A stretch of DNA of 64,000 bases from Bryobacteraceae bacterium (GCA_035485055.1 DATHOJ010000083.1:55966-119965); one strand, 5' to 3'; positions 2 through 49,236 are shown, numbered from the stretch's first letter. Notes: generated by a model from the sequence alone, not told the origin. Program-made: numbers and translations.

Positions 2-919
2 ATGGTGCGAATCGTGGCGCCGACCGACTCAACGGTGTTGATTAACGGTGAAACAGGAACCGGCAAGGAGCTGATTGCGGAAGCCATTCACAAGTGGAGC
101 GGCCGATCGGATGGTCCATTTGTGAAGGTGAATTGTGCCGCCATACCAGCGGGTTTGTTCGAAAGCGAACTGTTCGGTCACGAGCGTGGCGCCTACACCG
201 GAGCGGTCACGCGCGGTATCGGACGGTTCGAGCGGGCTAACCGTGGCACGTTGCTTTTGGATGAGGTCGGCGACGTTCCGCTCGAGTTGCAGCCCAAGCT
301 TCTTCGCGTCATGCAGGACAGACAGTTCGAGCGCCTGGGCGGTGGTGCAACGAGTCGAACCGATGTGCGAGTGATCTGTGCCACTCATCGGAATCTCGTG
401 GAGATGGTCGCAAACCGTGAATTCCGCGCTGACCTCTTTTATCGGCTCAGCGTATTCCCCATTGAATTACTACCTCTTCGTGAGCGCCGTGAAGACATCC
501 GTTTGTTGGTCCACCATTTTGCGATGGATTGCGCTGCTCGCATGAACAAAAGAATCACGTCCATATCAGAAGAATTCATGACCGCTCTTGTAGGTCATTC
601 ATGGCTGGGCAACGTGCGGGAATTGCAAAACTTCATCGAGCGCTCGGTGATTCTTTCGACGGACGACGTACTGAATGGTTCGCGGCCCGAAATCACTGGC
701 ACATTGCAGTTATCCGCGCCAGTGACGCTGGAAGAGGCGGAGCGCTCGCACATCCTTCATACTCTCCAGCAGACCAAAGGTAGGGTCGGCGGTCGGGATG
801 GCGCCGCGGCGCGGCTGGGCCTGCCACGGACGACGTTGATCTATAAGATGCAGCGGCTGGGTATTAATCGCGGGCGAGGAATTGGTGCGTTTGCGAAAAT
901 CGGCCGCAGCTCAGATTGA
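2..919 (+). CDS. sigma-54-dependent transcriptional activator (AAA+ core plus Fis-type HTH); 5' end lies outside the window
   Basis: Walker [24 protein letters not shown] loop, Walker [30 protein letters not shown]-terminal [29 protein letters not shown] is open to base 2. Confidence 0.9.
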
Positions 920-9699: not shown

Positions 9700-10668
9700 T
9701 TACCACTTCGACTCGGCACGACCGCGGGTTGTCTGTATCGTCGGCAGCTCGGCATTGGCCAGAAACGGTAGCACTCTATCGGAAGTGCCGGACGGGGAAA
9801 ACCGGGCGGATGCGACCCAGCGGCGTGCTCCGGGCACTTTCGATAGAGCCGTTTGAAGTGAGCCGTTGGCGGTTGCGGCGGACGCGGCACTTATGGGATT
9901 TGATGTTGTCGGGAACTTCGCGCCTGTCGATTTCTGATTTCCGCCATGCGATCCCACACAGGATACCGACTCCAGAAACATCTGATGGGCTCGAACGAGG
10001 TCCGTTTCAGCCTGGGTCCGCTCTCGATCGTGGGAATCGGCGAGGTTCAGGCACACGTTTCCTGAGTGTTCGGATAGGCGCGGGTTGTCGGCCGTGAGCT
10101 TCCTACGACGTATCAAACTGAACACCTTTTCCTTGCAGAATGGCGTCAAGTTGTGCTGCTGAGAGGTGTTCGACGAACTCCATCGGAGTTCTGCAATGTG
10201 GGCATCGCCTGGATCACCATACGTTGGCTGTAAATGTCATTCCACCTTCAACGAGCCACTTCGGAACGACGCAGGCCCGTGGAGTAGAGCGTCATCAGCA
10301 TCGCGCGATGCGCCAGATTGCTGGCGGCGTCCAATCAGCTTCGCCACTTCGTCCTGAATGAGCACGACGGGCAATCGCCGCGGCACTTTCGGGTACGGAA
10401 AATCCTGCCACAGGTACGGCCGCTTCAGCGTCTGCGCGAAGAAGAACTGCACGGCGGCCATGCGCTGCTTGACTGTTGTCGGAGCAAGCCTCCGGTCACG
10501 GAGCAGATCGAGTTGAAACTCGCGGATGTGCTCGGGGCCAAGCTGATCGGGCGGCCGGCGGAAATACTCGGCGAACTGCCGTAGAGCCAATGTATAGGCT
10601 GCTGCGGTAGTCTGGGCATAATTACGACGCTGGAGTTCCTCCAGCATCATTTTGCGTAAACGGGTCAC
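9700..10668 (-). pseudogene. tyrosine recombinase (phage-integrase family), degraded
   Basis: The SAM-like N-domain is intact: MTRLRKMMLEELQRRNYAQTTAAAYTLALRQFAEYFRRPPDQLGPEHIREFQLDLL...RLPVVLIQDEVAKLI. The catalytic domain can only be followed by changing frame (AASNLAHRAMLMTLYSTGLRRSEVAR, IYSQRMVI, FLANAELPTIQ in place of HLLExGxDxRxIQ). The R-H-R-Y residues cannot be recovered. Confidence 0.75.
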
Positions 10669-15588: not shown

Positions 15589-16689
15589 TCAATGATGCGA
15601 AGCTAATTCTGGCTTTCGTTCATTCTGACTGAGACCGAGCAGGTGCTCTGCGTTGAGGTGCGCGATCTTCGCCTTGTCATTCAAGTTGATCGGCATCTGA
15701 TCAAAGAATTGGCGAGCGGCTTTCATGTCCCCGTATGGATAGTCCGTGGTGAATACGACGCGGTCAATGCCGACCGTGTTCGCCATGCCCAGATAGGCCT
15801 GGTACGCCAAACTCCAGCCGCTGTCCATCGCGCCAGGTTCTTGGCCCACGTACTCACCAGCGAGGATTCCACCATAGAAGTTCTCCCGAATGTATTCCTT
15901 GATGGTCCGCTTCAGCCCACCGTTCTTGCCTAACGGAAAAGAGTAGTCCATTCGCCACGCCGACCAACTCAATATTTCGAAATTGTGGCCCACGATAATC
16001 TGCAGGGCAGGAAACCGGTCGAACACGCCGCCGAGGATTAAGCGGAGGCAGTGTACCCCGGTGTCGATGTGCCAGCCGACTCCTGCAATTGACAGAAACG
16101 CAGATATTTCGGGAGAGAAGCCGCTGTAGTAGGCATCGACCACCGGCTTGGGCGGAATCTGGGGGTGTAGGTAGATGGGCACGCCGAGTGCCTCGGCGCA
16201 TTCAAACACTGGCCAGAAGAATTTGTCGTCAAAGTAACGCCCGTTGATGTTGCTGTTTATCAATGCGCCAACGAAGCGCAGGTCGCGAACGGCGCGCTCG
16301 AGTTCGTGGACTGCAGCCACGGGGTCGAGCATCGGTAGTGTGGCAAATCCGAGAAGCCGGTCTGGGTAATTAGAGACCGTAGCCGCCAGGGCGTCGTTCG
16401 CCTGTCTAGTTAGCTCCTTCGCAAGCGACGGTTCGAGGCCCTCTGCGTTCGGCGTAGGGTACGAGAGGATCGATACATCGATACCGGCGTCGTCCATAGC
16501 AGCGATCCGCCCCTCACCTAGATCATAGATGCCCGCTGGAAACCCGGTTTTTGAATCCTTGAACTTTCCCGTTTTTTTTAGTACATCGTACGCCAGCGCG
16601 ACCCTATCGTTCGCCTTATGAGCGGCTTCGTATATAACCGGAAGCCCGTAGTGTTCCTCTAACGCGATAATCTTCTTTGGATCCTTCAT
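15589..16689 (-). CDS. amidohydrolase family protein (amidohydrolase_2 / ACMSD-like metal-dependent hydrolase or decarboxylase)
   Basis: MKDPKKIIALEEHYGLP..., DDAGIDVSILSY, LGVPIYLHPQ, WHIDTGVH, FTTDYPYGDM. GGAGAA RBS before the ATG at 16689. The upstream 77 codons of the track ORF are leader sequence. Confidence 0.85.
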   Translation of the reverse strand: MKDPKKIIALEEHYGLPVIYEAAHKANDRVALAYDVLKKTGKFKDSKTGFPAGIYDLGEGRIAAMDDAGIDVSILSYPTPNAEGLEPSLAKELTRQANDALAATVSNYPDRLLGFATLPMLDPVAAVHELERAVRDLRFVGALINSNINGRYFDDKFFWPVFECAEALGVPIYLHPQIPPKPVVDAYYSGFSPEISAFLSIAGVGWHIDTGVHCLRLILGGVFDRFPALQIIVGHNFEILSWSAWRMDYSFPLGKNGGLKRTIKEYIRENFYGGILAGEYVGQEPGAMDSGWSLAYQAYLGMANTVGIDRVVFTTDYPYGDMKAARQFFDQMPINLNDKAKIAHLNAEHLLGLSQNERKPELASHH

Positions 16690-16759
16690 CACTTGATTCT
16701 CCTCAGTAAGGTCAGGATGTCTGAACGTTCCACCGTATCCAAGAACGTCCGCGCTCGTT

Positions 16760-17075
16760 AGCGACGCACGCCGAGTGCCAGGAGGCAGTCCCACAGTATC
16801 GCCTGAATTCAAAGGAGTTGTGAAATAGCGACCCGTGCCGGCATTCGTTGCGTGACGAATCTCTGACGTCAAGACGGAAAGCAGATTGACGCGGACCGCA
16901 GCCGCAATTCCGTAACGCATTCAACGGAGACTGTGAGACAAACCGGGAAGGCTCTGGCTCTGAAGGCCTCAGGCTGATCCAAGCGGCGACAGCGCTTTCC
17001 GTACTGTGTGCGATCAAGCAGGGAATCTGCGCGCTCCATTCGCGCAGAATGCGGACGGCCTCATCTTTCGCTCAC
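16760..17075 (-). repeat. copy A of a ~320-bp inverted homologous leader/promoter segment (partner at 19351-19667)
   Basis: Shared ordered blocks when read on the minus strand: GTGAGCGAAA, GCCGTCCG..TTCTGCGCGA, CTGTCGCCGCTTGG, GGTTTGTCTCAC, ACGGAATTGC, TTGACGTCAGAG, CACGCAACGAAT, TTGAATTCAGGCGAT, GGCACTCG. Confidence 0.75.
16765..16780 (-). promoter_or_regulatory. candidate sigma-54 (-24/-12) promoter for the amidohydrolase gene
   Basis: The minus strand reads TGGCACTCGGCGTGCG, i.e. GG-N10-GC with TGGCAC at -24. It lies about 75 nt upstream of the ATG at 16689. Confidence 0.45.
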
Positions 17076-17504
17076 GGCACTCTTCGAAGCGGTAGGACGG
17101 TTCGGACTAGGAGCAACGCTTCGGTTTTATGCTGCCCAGTGGGGGACATGCTCGCATGACCTCCGAGGGATGGCGTCCCAGTGCTCATTGGTACCCTTCT
17201 TAGTGGTCTGGTTCAACCGAGAGTACTGAGAGCAACTGGTCGCCGTCAACCGCTATAATTCCCAGCGGGAGCGGCAGAGTGTGCCATAGCCATGGATCAA
17301 TTCGCCAGATAAATCGTTAATGTGGCTCTCAAACAAAATGGAGCTTGCGAATTAATACTGTCACGGATGACGATATCGCGGCAAACGCTTCAAAAGCTAA
17401 ATCGGGATTATGAGTTTGTAAGGAATTTTTGGGGACTACGGGGAGAGAGTGTCGCTACGGCCTAACTGATGACTCTGGCGGCACGAAATCGGATACGGGA
17501 ATGC

Positions 17505-17695
17505 TTACTCCGCGGCTTTGAGTCGGTCGAGGATGCCAAGCTTTTTCATTTTATAAAGCAGAGTGGTGCGCGCGAGTCCTAGTCTGACTGCTGCACCTTC
17601 CGGTCCGCCGACCGTCCAACCCGACGCTTCCAATGTCTGCAAGATTAAACCCCGGTCGATTTCCTTCAGTGTCGTTGACTTCGATATCACAGCTA
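17505..17695 (-). pseudogene. C-terminal HTH_8 (Fis-type) tail of a sigma-54 activator, orphan fragment
   Basis: TTLKEIDRGLILQTLEASGWTVGGPEGAAVRLGLARTTLLYKMKKLGI followed by a stop. No AAA+ domain lies upstream on this strand. Confidence 0.65.
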
Positions 17696-18331
17696 CCGTT
17701 TCCAGATGATCCGACGGCCTCAGGCCGACCTGATCTTCGGCTGTCTTAACGAGTGGGAGGCGCAGCAGCACATCGACGAATTCTCTCCGGGCACACAGGA
17801 CATTCCAGACCGGCTGGTGATTCCCGAAAGGTTGTATGGTCGCGACCGCGAAATTGAGGTATTGCTTGCAGCTTTCGACCGCGTCGTGGCAGGTGGGCGG
17901 CCGGAGTTGGTGCTCGTTTCCGGAAACTCCGGAATCGGCAAGTCGTCGATCGTAAACGAACTCCACAAACCGCTTGTTCGTAACTCGCGGTCTGTTTCGC
18001 AGCAGATAAGTCCGACCAATATGAGAGACGTCCCCTATGCGACCTTGGCACAGGCCTTTCAGAGCCTCCTGCATCGGATTCTGACCAAGAGCGAGTCAGA
18101 ACTGAGCAAATGGCGCGACGCGCTTCGCGAAGCCTTAGGTCCGCACGGGCAGATCATTGTGGATCTGGTTCCCAAGCTGAAGTTCATCGTTGGAGAACAG
18201 CCCCTTGTTCCTGAAATTTCGCCACATGACGCGCAAGTTCGCTTTCAACAAGTCTGATTCGATTTATTGGCGTATTCGTGCGCCAAGAACATCCCCTCGC
18301 CTTATTCGTCGACGATTTGCAATGGCTCGCG
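17694..18331 (+). pseudogene. AAA_16 ATPase segment of a kinase-ATPase (STAND-like) regulator; fragment with a frameshift near 18250
   Basis: FQMIRRPQADLIFGCLNEWEAQQHIDEF...PERLYGRDREIEVLLAAFDRVVAGGRPELVLVSGNSGIGKSSIVNELHK...DVPYATLAQAFQSLLHRIL...WRDALREALGPHGQIIVDLVPKLKFIVGEQP...RFQQV, then in another frame LIRFIGVFVRQEHPLALFVDDLQWL. Confidence 0.8.
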
Positions 18332-19121
18332 CTCGAGGCCTACTGCTGTTTGGTACGGCTCCTCAGCGGTCTTGGCGAGGAGCTTGATGATGATGGCCGA
18401 AAGCATCCCCGGAATGCCCTTCGCCTGCCCGTCCGGCGGCGCGGGCTGCCGAGCGATATGGTAGTGCACGCAGTCCATCGGATCAGAAGCGATGAAGGGG
18501 AGACTCCCAGTCAGCATCTCGTACATCGTGACGCCCAAAGCATAGAGGTCGCTACGCAAATCGATGGAACGATTCATCCGTCCGGTCTGTTCCGGCGCCA
18601 TGTAGGGAAGGTTCCAGCGATGAACTCGGGTGGCCCGGGGGCTGTCGTTCGCGCGAAGACGCGAGGCGATTCCGAAACCCGTGAGCCAGGCATGGCCGGT
18701 CGCGGTGTCGACAAGGACATTCGAGGGTTTCAAATCTTTGTGGATCACCGAACGATTGTGTAACTGGTCAAGTGCGGTTGAAAGGCCAATGGCGAGACGC
18801 AAACATTGCTCTATTTCCATCGGGCCTCGAATGAGACGATGGAGAAACTCACCACCCGGATCCTCGAGCACTAGGACTTTCTGTCCGTTGCACTGCGAAA
18901 GAGCAAGGGGTCGAACTGCCCATGTTGGATCGAAATCGTGGCGGAGCGGATATTCGTGCTCCATCTTCTTGAGGCTTTCCAGTCGGAGGCGTGTCGAGGT
19001 AAGGGTCAGCAGAAGAACAGAAGGCGCTTCCGCTGTCTTTGTACGTGCTCGGTTCCTCATCCTCACGGAGGCATTCCCGCATATATTCTGACATTTCCAC
19101 AATGGGTGGCCTCTCCACCAT
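18332..19121 (-). pseudogene. Ser/Thr protein-kinase-like domain of the same regulator family; fragment with a frameshift near 19030
   Basis: YMRECLREDEEPS (one frame), then MEHEYPLRHDFDPTWAVRPLAL...VLVLEDPGGEFL...VIHKDLKPSNVLVD...WLTGFGIASRL...YMAPEQTGRMNRSIDLRSDLYALGVTMYEMLTGSLPF...LLAKTAEEPYQTAVGLE. Confidence 0.8.
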
Positions 19122-19350
19122 CGGGACACTTCATTGACTTTCGTATGGGCGCCTACGCGAATCGACTTCAACAGACGCCGCATTGATGCACGCATACGGA
19201 CACTATCACCGGTTATAAATAAACCAGCGACATGATGTCATCCGGTAATGCGTGCGCAGTCTTCCGTTGGGGCAGCGTAAGCCGAAAAGTGCCCTGGTTC
19301 GGAGCGCCCGGCCTTGAGCTCAACCCGACGCTCACCGCCGGAAGAGCGCG

Positions 19351-19667
19351 GTGAGCGAAATGAGAGCCGTCCGTTTTCTGCGCGAGTGCTGCGCGCGGTT
19401 TCTCGATCTCATCGCCTTCAACGGGGAGAGAACTGTCGCCGCTTGGTTTAGCATCGGCCGGGTACTTTTAGAGAAGTCTTCCTGGTTTGTCTCACCTCAG
19501 TTCAATTCGTGACGGAATTGCTCTTGCGCGTCGCGTCAGTACAGATCTTGGGCCTTTGACGTCAGAGGCTTGACACGCAACGAATACTGGCGAGATTCAC
19601 CATTTCAAAACCCTTTTGAATTCAGGCGATCCTACGACGCTGCTTCCCGGCACTCGAAATGCATCGA
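19351..19667 (+). repeat. copy B of the ~320-bp inverted homologous leader/promoter segment (partner at 16760-17075)
   Basis: The same ordered blocks as copy A, read on the plus strand. By eye roughly two-thirds of positions are identical. Confidence 0.75.
19648..19663 (+). promoter_or_regulatory. candidate sigma-54 (-24/-12) promoter upstream of the mdlC-like gene
   Basis: CGGCACTCGAAATGCA, i.e. GG-N10-GC, at the position homologous to the copy A element. It is about 300 nt upstream of the ATG at 19961. Confidence 0.4.
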
Positions 19668-19903
19668 TTGGTGGCGGTTGGGAGGACTTCCAACCGGCGC
19701 TGGGACGCCTTCCGGAAGCGACTGCTGCATCTGGCGAGGTGGGCATTTTGATGGTTTGGAGAGGTGAGCTGTGAGCTATCGAGCAACCCAGACAAGAACA
19801 CGAAGAAGCTCTATAAGGAAGTTCAGAAGATGTTCAAGAACTTTCCGCCGAGGGCATCGTAATACTGCTGCGTACTTTCACTCAAGCTTCGTGTCACGGC
19901 TGA

Positions 19904-22301
<2,398 letters not shown>

Positions 22302-44654: not shown

Positions 44655-44992
44655 GACAACCTCAGAATACGGGTTCCAGGGCCTCACGGGCGTGGAGATT
44701 TCGTAGAGTTAATGTAGCGAGCCGTGGCTTCGGGTTCGCATATCGCATTCTGGCCTCTCGAGCAGATGCGGAGGACGCCGTCCAGGGCTGCTTCCTCAAA
44801 GCGGCGTGAGGCGGATCGCACCCTAAGGACCCTACACTGCGTCAATCGCTTTCCGGGGGGAGCACCATCGTTGCCAACCGGATTGTTCGCATAAGCCGGG
44901 ATGCGACGGTCAGGCCCGGTTATACGAGTCTTGAATTGCGGAGTGAACCTCTTGGGGTCGAAAATGAAAAGGGGGTTAATCCCAAACGCGAA

Positions 44993-47557
44993 ATGAGCTC
45001 AGAGATCTCTATTGGGACGCCACACAAAGGGCAACGCTATCAGGCCTTGCTACGAATTAGCGAAGCACTTTCCGGATGCAGCGAGCCTGAGGAGCTGACG
45101 AGAATCCTCTCGGAACAACTGGGCGAGTTCCTCGACTTCTTCCAGTTCTACATCATTGTTTATAAGGAAAATTCCAGCGAAGTCGAATGGGCGGTGGTGG
45201 GGTCCGAGAAGAGCTTGATCAGTGCGTACGCCGATGTGCCGGTACATGAGCGGCCGTCCTGGCGTGCTTACGCTACCCAGGAACCCTTTCACATCGCAGA
45301 TTGGGACGCAGACGAAAGAGTGCCGGCCCGGCTTAAGCAAGGCATTACGGGGCAAGGTCTTGAAATTGGGCCGCTGGTTTTTGTGCCCCTCACAACACCG
45401 CATCGACGCCTGGGTGCCCTGGGAATGTCCGGACCCCCTGGAGCCGCCTACAGTAGCGAAGACATTGGCTTCCTACGCCTGATCGGGCGAGTGGTTGCGT
45501 TCGCGATAGACGATAATTTCAATCTTAGGCAGGCCGAGGCCGCCCAACTAGAATTACAACGCCAGAACTGGCGGCTGCAAAACAGCGAACGAGAGCTCCG
45601 GGACGTCATTGAAACCATTCCGGTCATGGCCTGGTCGGCAGCAGCAGACGGCGCGGCTGAATTCTTCAACAGGCGGTGGTTGGACTACGCTGGCCTTTCC
45701 GCGGATCAGGTGCGTGGTTGGGGCTGGATCAGCGCTGTCCATCCGGATGATCTGAACAGGCTCGCGGACTACTGGCGCGGAAGGCTGGCTTCCGGGCAGT
45801 CAGGTGAGATCGAAGCGCGACTGCGCCGTTTCGACGGGGTGTACCGCTGGTTTCTATTTCGTGCGACTCCGTCACTGGACCACGGAAGGGTCGTGAGATG
45901 GTACGGAACGAATACCGACATCGAAGCGCGCAAGACTGCGGAGCAAGCGATTATTACTCAGAATAGCAGGCTCCAGCTTCTTCTAAAGCTAACGAAGGAG
46001 ATCACTTCAAACCTGGAGCGTCGCGAATTGCTGCGGGCAATCTCAGCGAGTATTCGTGAAGTCATGGATTGGGACGCGGTCCATATTTCGCTCGCCGACC
46101 CGGCTACGGGTAAATTCCGCCTGTATGCCTTGGATTTTCCAGAGGGCAAGGGCTTTGTCAAGGAGGAAATGCTCATCGAGTCGGTCGGCGCCTGTAAGCG
46201 AGCTCTGGAGACGCTGCAACCGACAACCAGGAATACTGCCAATCCCCAGGAATTCCCACCCGATCTATACAAGTTGATGGTGGCGGAGGGGCTTAAGACG
46301 CAATGTGTGATACCGCTTGTCAGCCGCGGCCAAGTTGTCGGAGCTCTGACCATTAACCGCAGCACCGATGAAGCCTTCCTGCCGGATGAGATCGATTTTC
46401 TCAAAGAAGCATCCGGTCAAATAGCCATCGCTATCGAAAATTGCGTGGCCTTCAGCGAGATTTCCGAGCTGAAAGAGAAGCTTGCGCAAGAGAAGCTATA
46501 TCTCGAAGAAGAAATCCGGGGCGACCTGAATTTCGAGGAGATTGTGGGGAATAGTCCGGCGCTCAAGCAAGTACTCCAGCTCGTCGAAACCGTCGCGTCC
46601 AGCGATTCAACCGTTCTACTACTCGGCGAAACGGGAACCGGCAAGGAGTTGATCGCCCGTGCGATTCACGACCGTAGCCGTCGAAAAAACCGCACCTTCG
46701 TAAAGGTGAACTGTGCGGCAATACCGACTGGCCTCCTCGAGAGCGAATTATTTGGTCACGAAAAGGGCGCTTTCACCGGGGCTATTTCCCGGAAGATTGG
46801 CCGGCTCGAATTAGCCGATCAAGGCACGCTGTTTCTAGACGAAGTTGGTGACATCCCGATTGAAATTCAACCGAAACTGTTGCGGGCACTTCAAGAGCAG
46901 GAGTTCGAACGGCTGGGAAGCACGCAAACGCGTAAGGTGAATGTTCGCCTCGTAGCCGCCACCAACCGCGATCTCGAAGATATGATCGCGGCGCGTGAAT
47001 TTCGGAGCGATCTGTATTACCGGCTGAACGTGTTTCCGATTCGAATACCACCGTTGCGGGAGCGCAAGCAAGATATTCCGCTGCTGGTGAGTTATTTCGT
47101 TCAGAAGTTTGCGAAACAAATGCAGAAGGAGATAAAGGGCATTCCCGGGGCTGTCATGAAAGCGCTAACCGCCTGGGAATGGCCCGGAAACGTTCGCGAA
47201 CTGGCAAATTTCGTCGAACGGGCTGTGATCCTTACTCGGGGCCAGTCGCTGGCGGCTCCCCTAGCCGAACTGCGAAAAGCGACGGTCGACGAATCCAAGG
47301 GCACCGTAAAAAATGCCGCGACAAATAACGATAATATTGCCCGTATCGTGAGGGAGACGATCAACGCACTACATGGAAATAGCAGTACCGCAGGCGATCG
47401 TGTCCGAAAACAACGCGACGAGATCGTGCGCGCGATCACCGAGACAAAGGGGCGAGTGGGAGGTGCGGAAGGCGCCGCCGCGCGCATGCGGATGAACCGG
47501 ACAACTCTCCTGGCCCGCATGAAGAAACTTGGCATCAATCCCCGCGATTATTCCTGA
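44993..47557 (+). CDS. sigma-54-dependent activator with GAF-PAS-GAF sensory region
   Basis: [11 protein letters not shown] (GAF), [27 protein letters not shown]...VHPDD...[10 protein letters not shown] (PAS), second GAF ...[10 protein letters not shown], then [80 protein letters not shown]. Confidence 0.9.
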
Positions 47558-48462: not shown

Positions 48463-49236
48463 ATGCGATCGAATCTGTCTCCTACGATTCCAACCCCACG
48501 CAGAATACCCTCCAAGACAGACCCTCCCGAGTTCGTTTTGGAGGCGATCCGTGAAGGCGCGGAATTCACCCTTTACCGCGCTCGTCAGCACGGTAACCTA
48601 TCGCCTGTCCTGATAATGGTTCCCACCGCAGAACCACCGTTGCCGCAGAGCCTGCGATGCCTTGAGCACGAATGCTCGCTCGCAGGCGAACTTGAGCCCG
48701 CGTGGACGGCGAAGCCCATGACGTTAACGTGTTACGAAGGACGGACAAACCTTGTTCTCGCCGACCCTGGCGGCGAGCCCCTGGACCTCATGCTTGAGCA
48801 GGACAAAGAGCAGCCACTCGATCCAGCTCGTTTTCTACGCAGCGCAATTAGCCTGGTGAACGCGCCAGGGCACGTGCATCAGCGTGGTCTGATCCATAAA
48901 GACATCGAGCCCGAGAACGTGTTCGTCGACGGCGCCGGCCACTTATGGCTTACCGGCTTTAGCATCGCATCCTGGCTGCCACGCGAGCGCCAGACACCCG
49001 CGCCGCCCGAAATCAGTGCCGGCGCCCTTGCCTACATGTCCCCTGAACAGACAGGGCGCATGAATCGATCGATCGATTCCCGCAGCGATCTCTATTCTCT
49101 AGGCGTCACTTTATACGAAATGCTTACGGGCGTGCTGCCGTTCGCCGCCGCGGACCCCCTTGGAGTGGGCCGTTCACGACGGGCCGGCGGAAACTGCGTC
49201 TTTGATCAGCAGAAGCGCAGGAACAAAATGGTCTGA
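48463..49236 (+). pseudogene. kinase-like domain of a kinase-AAA16 regulator, truncated after subdomain IX
   Basis: FVLEAIREGAEFTLYRARQ..., LEHECSLAGELEPAWTAKPMTL, LVLADPGGEPLD, LIHKDIEPENVFVD, WLTGFSIAS, YMSPEQTGRMNRSIDSRSDLYSLGVTLYEMLTGVLPFAAADPL. The frame is then lost, and the crotonase gene starts 28 nt later. Confidence 0.75.

Follow-up and report, generated by a model that had tools for sequence, protein, structure and literature searches.

How does a Ser/Thr-kinase-like domain, an AAA_16 domain and a Fis-type HTH_8 domain come to lie abutting one another on alternating strands within about 1.6 kb, and does any of the three still work? The question is raised by positions 17,505 to 19,121 of a 64,000-nucleotide (nt) stretch of the genome of an uncultured soil Acidobacterium (Bryobacteraceae bacterium, GCA_035485055.1, DATHOJ010000083.1:55966-119965), hereafter called the window. 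A first-pass annotation, made from the sequence alone, had described the locus as a single kinase-AAA16-sigma54 regulator broken into three pieces. Our analysis indicates that the locus probably holds the remnants of two regulatory genes, in which one segment was flipped, apparently by a single three-break inversion-deletion, and that it represents ordinary gene decay and not a working or switchable system.

The alternating strands of the three pieces were borne out by the listing of open reading frames (ORFs), by Pfam scans and by colinear homologues. Pfam detects Pkinase on the minus strand (19195-18302, E = 6.9e-24), AAA_16 on the plus strand (17706-18257, E = 3.4e-23) and HTH_8 again on the minus strand (17720-17505, E = 1.2e-8). 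The 'EHPLALFVDDLQWL' end of AAA_16 lies in a different plus-strand frame (18278-18331), and the 'DDLQWL' end on the plus strand at 18278-18400, when scanned alone, scores 16.9 bits (E = 0.0094) against a cut-off of 32.6. The limits of the three pieces, which we call K, M and H, were refined by alignment against homologous DNA and are as follows.

18327-19121, minus strand: K, the N-terminal Ser/Thr-kinase-like domain of a large sensor gene, a pseudogene, with its start codon at 19121 and its end in the linker G-L-E-R-D
17731-18329, plus strand: M, an inverted 599-nt segment with the linker and the first three-quarters of AAA_16, including the P-loop, as far as DDLQWL
17505-17733, minus strand: H, the 3' end of a sigma-54 activator gene, with a linker and the Fis-type HTH_8 domain, and its stop codon at 17505-17507

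About 265 codons survive in K and about 200 in M, and H retains the last 75 of its gene. A tblastn search with seven full-length homologues found neither the TPR/GAF/PAS middle nor an output domain (HisKA plus HATPase_c, or Sigma54_activat) within 17.4-19.3 kb. The Sigma54_activat AAA+ domain is absent at the locus, where the AAA_16 piece gives a weak P-loop-level match only (0.007, below the cut-off). The Rfam scan of the window returned no match, and the composition profile of the window is unremarkable.

When the minus-strand kinase translation, followed by the plus-strand AAA_16 translation, is used as a query, its entire length (100%) can be aligned with colinear proteins, at identities of at most 75%. 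Of the 80 genome loci listed, 78 match the query colinearly, beginning no later than its residue 35 and continuing at least to residue 381; L078 and L079 (such handles denote related loci and contigs) match it only up to residues 296 and 336, respectively. The colinear homologues are mostly single ORFs of about 1,830-2,100 amino acids (aa), the range reaching 2,110 aa. Since the kinase and AAA_16 are colinear in the homologues, the strand discordance is specific to the window locus. The alignment to full-length homologues that had been proposed as a check therefore upholds the strand reading, and the expectation that the AAA_16 segment normally comes next after the kinase proved correct, as M lies directly after K in intact homologues.

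The break between K and M can be placed almost to the base. The DNA of K is 84.1% identical to L140 and 83.0% identical to L091, and the matches of M to the DNA of L091, L109, L140, L003 and L006 all run from 17731 to 18329. K ends in ...GGC CTC GAG CGC GA (G-L-E-R-D) and M starts with (T)GAT CTT CGG (D-L-R); the cut between them splits a single Asp codon, leaves no more than 3 bases ambiguous and has cost no sequence. Identity is continuous across the break, passing from 87 to 84% in L140, from 85 to 85% in L091 and from 90 to 86% in L109. Because the break lies within one Asp codon and the similarity is unbroken on its two sides, the alignments indicate that K and M are parts of one former gene. 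Both ends of M as it now stands are joined with minimal overlap.

18327-18329: right junction, where the end of K meets the distal (DDLQWL) end of the inverted M; the two share 3 nt (minus-strand CGA), as placed by the alignment with L140, L091 and L109
17731-17733: left junction, linking the start of M with the remaining tail of the activator; the two share no more than 3 nt (plus-strand TGA), M homology starting at 17731 and H homology (to L164) reaching 17733

No inverted repeats of 10 nt or more were found pairing the two junction regions. These nucleotide-level breakpoints sustain the earlier proposal that the AAA_16 segment was inverted in place and that a large stretch was deleted as well. 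The left junction had been misread in one respect. The DNA of L164 is 85% identical to the minus strand of the window from 17733 downwards, and the closest relatives of the HTH tail read '...LRVGLRPSDRLETVTVTSKSTTLKEVDRAL...' (protein P0122). The string GGCCTCAGGCC at 17716-17726 corresponds to the minus-strand codons V-G-L-R-P of the H gene, which are conserved in P0122 ('LRVGLRPSDRLETVTV') and in the DNA of L164. As both of them conserve V-G-L-R-P, GGCCTCAGGCC represents the activator's own codons, and the 'GGCCTCAG' at 17716, in which the kinase linker had been thought to recur, is part of the H gene. The related claim that both junctions sit in GL(E/Q)ADL codons is right for the break between K and M and wrong for the left junction, where 'QADL' is a reading across the joint. 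We also considered a perfect 12-nt palindrome, GGCCTCGAGGCC, in the linker codons at both junctions, which would have mediated a template switch. It was rejected, since in the kinase piece, just as in its homologues, CGC (Arg) is the codon that follows; it fails also at the left, where GGCCTCAGGCC encodes the V-G-L-R-P of the activator.

The pieces are damaged well beyond their junctions. Relative to L140 and L091, K has lost 11 nt at about 19052 and single nucleotides at three places within 18607-18657, and its translation contains stops. M carries five lesions (-2 at 17742, +1 at 17982, +1 at 17995, -2 at 18019 and -1 at 18254), for a total of nine indels in K and M. H, on the other hand, reads in a single open frame throughout and has no frameshift, so that the earlier statement that each piece has its own frameshift stands for K and M and fails for H. 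The rearranged structure is present in four further assemblies, one of them a distinct haplotype on a 1,404-nt contig (L169, JGI sample 3300081827) that differs by 10 mismatches and one additional base (99.2% identity). This contig spans the right junction and has the identical joint and the same K lesions. Its seven substitutions in the K ORF fall in six codons, every one of which changes its residue; none is synonymous. The rearrangement predates the strain split, and the pieces are evolving without constraint. With indels throughout K and M and with whole domains lost, the three pieces are, to judge by their sequence, all dead, and no working regulator is left at the locus. The view that a regulator between two sigma-54-type promoter modules has been destroyed is thus confirmed. 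The two modules are paralogous.

16755-17170, minus strand: P_L, the promoter module upstream of the intact amidohydrolase gene, left arm of a repeat, with the sigma-54-type site TGGCACTCGGCGTGCG at 16765-16780
19260-19680, plus strand: P_R, the paralogous promoter module between K and a TPP-enzyme pseudogene, right arm of the repeat, with the sigma-54-type site CGGCACTCGAAATGCA at 19648-19663

The origin of H determines whether one gene or two were lost. Complete members of the sensor family to which K and M belong come with two outputs, a histidine kinase (L003, L009 and L091) or a sigma-54 AAA+ domain with HTH_8 (L005, L006 and L049), and because both variants exist, descent of all three pieces from one gene is possible. 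The nearest relatives of H, however, are stand-alone activators or contig-end fragments of such activators (P0122-P0129), with 71-83% aa identity, whereas the HTH tails of kinase-type sigma-54 proteins are only 38-55% identical to it. P0122, at 83% aa identity, is part of a 494+109-aa activator in L164 (85% identity at the nt level), and L165 encodes a 388-aa activator that is 71% identical to H. Downstream of the H-bearing activator of L164 lies the promoter module that is also present in the window, and elsewhere L164 is 87% identical to the window over the end of an 873-aa activator and the region downstream of it. The nearest complete K-M genes (L091, 83% nt identity; L003, 78%) end in HisKA/HATPase_c and are followed by separate activator genes. 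The order in L091, which is sensor with histidine-kinase output, response regulator, 375-aa activator and amidohydrolase, corresponds in order and orientation to that of K, H and the amidohydrolase gene in the window. These comparisons make it likely that H comes from a separate downstream sigma-54 activator gene, which would mean two ancestral genes and not the single regulator first proposed.

According to the one-gene alternative, a single Pkinase-AAA_16-GAF-PAS-Sigma54_activat-HTH_8 gene suffered the inversion of M in place and an internal deletion of about 4.3 kb, and H is its own C-terminus. This architecture is found in the relatives L005, L006, L049 and L001, the deletion required is the smallest, and the locus is flanked by two sigma-54 promoter modules, all of which speak for it; the low identity of H to the tails of kinase-type sigma-54 proteins, its closeness to stand-alone activators and the histidine-kinase outputs of L091 and L003 speak against it, and on balance we consider it unlikely. 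Several other observations weigh against two adjacent ancestral genes, a single event and subsequent decay. Along the distal two-thirds of M the sigma-54-output members are the more similar (75-79% in L006 and up to 80% in L001, versus 61-74% in the histidine-kinase-output loci L091 and L003), which keeps the one-gene model alive. L164 has no kinase-type sensor beside its activator, so that the adjacency of the two ancestral genes can only be presumed. No un-rearranged orthologue was found in a search with K alone, the next-best kinase piece being 82% identical, so that the ancestral state is deduced from paralogous or more distant loci. Two successive events could have left the same end state as one. 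Finally, the long-branch ratios of nonsynonymous to synonymous substitution rates (dN/dS) are 0.18-0.28 for K, 0.17-0.18 for M and 0.28 for H, not clearly above the 0.12-0.25 of the intact amidohydrolase gene (the comparison EBP873 vs L109 was left out, as it was in the wrong frame). Because these values resemble those of an intact gene, most of the divergence from the available relatives predates the inactivation, and in these data it is the indels and the strain-level substitutions alone that show the relaxed selection.

Among the 80 loci from species-representative genomes there was no syntenic orthologue, and queries with the TPP-enzyme, second-amidohydrolase and left-amidohydrolase sequences had no match there. 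A search of metagenome contigs led by the amidohydrolase yielded 80 loci, the closest of which (94% aa identity) carry a different upstream gene, encoding an 869-aa GAF-PAS-GAF activator; since their homology to the window stops 13 nt upstream of the start codon, they do not represent the ancestral state. Contig L166 stops 24 nt short of the left junction.

Three further explanations were weighed against the two-gene inversion-deletion. The pieces could come from different paralogues, joined by recombination or by deletions between neighbouring, oppositely oriented copies, in which case M was never part of the K gene. The window and related contigs do contain many paralogous copies and remnants, such as a second truncated kinase at 48463-49236, the amidohydrolase region is a mosaic, and the similarity profile of M shifts along its length. 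Nevertheless, the end of K and the start of M share one codon, with at most three ambiguous bases and nothing lost, and the rank and level of similarity to L140, L091 and L109 are equal on either side of the break; this continuity tells against the recombination between paralogs that the first-pass annotation had offered as its alternative. Moreover, homologous recombination between inverted paralogues gives colinear chimeras and not strand-discordant joints, which also counts against an origin from different paralogues. We therefore regard such an origin as very unlikely. An artefact of assembly or amplification has in its favour only that the source is a metagenome contig. The same sequence was recovered in the JGI and ENA MEGAHIT assemblies, the window being 100% identical to an ENA MEGAHIT contig over 21.1 kb, and the neighbouring amidohydrolase is encoded identically on that contig and on a 248.6-kb JGI metagenome contig (sample 3300050821). 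Both larger fragments are also in the NCBI metagenome-assembled genome (MAG), the same junction occurs in the 99.2% haplotype from another sample, and the junctions lack long repeats able to mislead a de Bruijn graph. An artefact is thus scarcely conceivable.

The remaining explanation is a programmed invertible segment, a phase switch that would flip M between two orientations. By codon reading, flipping M back would put its DDLQWL end in frame with the HTH tail, and a fragment of a tyrosine recombinase lies 7 kb away.

10237-10668, minus strand: tyrosine-recombinase remnant, a 143-aa ORF with the N-terminal SAM-like domain only (Phage_int_SAM_4, 1.7e-20)

This fragment is a truncated N-terminal piece; no catalytic recombinase domain was detected in the ORFs adjoining it, and it is probably a mobile-element remnant. 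The neighbourhood examined contains no intact invertase or recombinase, only this fragment, the other ORFs of the window not having been scanned systematically. M has no flanking inverted repeats, only the 3-nt overlaps, the frameshifts throughout M and K would prevent a product in either orientation, and every contig that spans a junction, the diverged haplotype included, shows one and the same orientation. A switch is accordingly extremely unlikely. There is also a minus-strand ORF of 189 aa (18074-17505), in which the first 118 residues or so are antisense of the inverted AAA_16 and are fused in frame to the undamaged HTH_8 tail. The ORF is absent from the JGI and ENA gene calls for the locus. 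If transcribed, this chimera could bind the activator sites of the flanking sigma-54 promoter modules and act as an anti-activator, a role that we hold to be highly improbable; if it were real, the chimera would be a new small regulator born from a rearrangement.

The history that we favour, with two genes and one inversion-deletion, would have run as follows. The ancestor would have had two adjacent minus-strand regulatory genes, the first of them in divergent orientation to the P_R module and coding for a large cytoplasmic sensor (Pkinase-AAA_16-TPR-GAF-PAS type), and the second, downstream, for a sigma-54 enhancer-binding activator whose remnant H lies just upstream of the P_L module and the amidohydrolase gene. 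One rearrangement would have made three breaks, after K, after M and within the activator linker, followed by the joining of K to the flipped M and of M to H. Under the two-gene model about 5.6 kb or more of DNA would have been discarded, and under the one-gene model about 4.3 kb. The microhomology of at most 3 nt would fit both the end-joining of a shattered stretch and a double template switch in replication. Since the break between K and M is kept to the base and neither joint is ragged, one event with three breaks is the more parsimonious course; an inversion with a later deletion would require that the deletion chanced to stop precisely at the joint already there. Since then the remnants have drifted neutrally.

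The two promoter modules that flank the locus are the arms of an inverted repeat of about 415 nt, with approximately 71-77% complementarity and a core at 16762-16872 and 19556-19666. P_R runs without interruption into the region upstream of K, just as it does in L140 and L003. The module was found in 17 copies at 16 further metagenome loci, where it precedes both amidohydrolase and TPP-enzyme genes, and is marked by a conserved TGGCAC-N5-(A/G)TGC sigma-54 element, a TTGAATTCAGGCGAT box and a TTGACGTCA palindrome some 85 nt upstream. In at least 90% of 19 aligned module copies, the sigma-54 site retains its GG and TGC elements. Across the window the sigma-54 consensus is not enriched (34 matches versus 29 expected), and the two sigma-54-type sites owe their credibility solely to their conservation in the module. 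The genes downstream of the two arms are as follows.

15589-16689, minus strand: intact Amidohydro_2 gene (PF04909) of 366 aa, downstream of P_L; the exact protein is encoded on two contigs, and the gene has 93.5% nt identity to L084 and a dN/dS of 0.12
19961-20913, plus strand: pseudogene of a thiamine-pyrophosphate (TPP) enzyme, driven by P_R, with stops, at least 3 frame changes and roughly the last third missing

In the TPP pseudogene, Pfam places TPP_enzyme_N and TPP_enzyme_M on separate ORFs, and homologues of 550-603 aa can be aligned, over two frames, no further than about residue 353-380; in place of the missing last part comes the start of the next amidohydrolase gene (20985-22301). 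The intact amidohydrolase gene driven by P_L would have to depend on a paralogous activator elsewhere in the genome. Its locus is a mosaic. The coding region is 93.5% identical to one locus group (15589-16703 versus L084-L087), with that homology ending 13 nt upstream of the ATG, and the promoter region (16690-16946) is about 80% identical to a different group (L140), whose coding regions are only about 80% identical. This pattern suggests an exchange between paralogous clusters.

Remnants of regulators are not confined to this locus. The second truncated copy of the kinase family, at 48463-49236 on the plus strand, is independent of the first and comprises approximately the first 230-255 codons only; it lies between an intact gene for an 873-aa GAF-PAS-GAF sigma-54 activator (44936-47557, plus strand) and an enoyl-CoA hydratase gene. 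L109 has, in the position of this second copy, a K-M gene that runs to the end of the contig. In L103, a decayed HTH_8 tail (478-632, minus strand) abuts the promoter module (653-870) and an amidohydrolase gene, in an orientation opposite to that of the window. Activator-tail debris beside this promoter module may be recurrent.

Proteins that combine an N-terminal Ser/Thr kinase, GAF and a C-terminal His-kinase have been described as dual protein kinases, for example the cyanobacterial HstK (PMC2176072). When compared with such dual Ser/Thr- and histidine-kinase sensors of cyanobacteria (cbSTKIII, HstK/Alr2258), K and M match the N-terminal Pkinase and AAA_16 of the AAA_16-bearing relatives, and these (L003, L009 and L091; 1,830-2,110 aa) continue with GAF, PAS and HisKA/HATPase_c. 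Unlike the dual kinases, the window locus retains the first 465 codons or so only, on two strands and frameshifted, with no GAF, PAS or output domain. Relative to its own sensor family, it has the kinase-like domain, with four deletions, but its AAA_16 lies on the opposite strand, is truncated at DDLQWL and is frameshifted. In all 21 of the 21 aligned family members, the window included (about 18680-18690), G-F-G stands in place of the Mg-binding D-F-G normal in protein kinases, while HKDLKPSN is intact; what passes for a kinase domain in these sensors may be a pseudokinase.

With regard to the sigma-54 enhancer-binding proteins of the NtrC/FhlA class (Sigma54_activat, AAA_lid_14 and HTH_8), H has the typical form of a Fis-type HTH_8 tail together with the linker before it, and it adjoins a conserved sigma-54 promoter module. 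As it has neither the sigma-54-interaction AAA+ domain nor a sensory domain, H cannot activate transcription. The structure as a whole, with three breakpoints, two joints of at most 3 nt, one segment inverted and the adjacent one lost, is like that of microhomology inversion-deletion rearrangements in general. The mechanism proposed here is deduced from the end product alone, the searches having recovered neither an intermediate nor an ancestral allele.

What the locus means in practice concerns mainly the databases. The NCBI third-party MAG 'Bryobacteraceae bacterium' lists two adjacent proteins, HTB13119.1 ('AAA family ATPase') and HTB13120.1 ('protein kinase'), which correspond to the fragments at 17706-18257 on the plus strand and 18302-19195 on the minus strand, and JGI labels the two as 'predicted ATPase' and 'serine/threonine protein kinase'. 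Both HTB13119.1 and HTB13120.1 merit pseudogene flags, and the correction of these entries is the main practical value of the finding. No new mechanism or system is implied. The locus would nonetheless be a clean case from nature, in an uncultured soil Acidobacterium, of an inversion-deletion with three breaks and with 3-nt microhomology at its joints. Taken together with the second truncated kinase, the decayed TPP gene and the mosaic amidohydrolase, it shows a fast turnover, by gain, shuffling and loss, of multi-copy sigma-54-controlled catabolic clusters and of their sensors.

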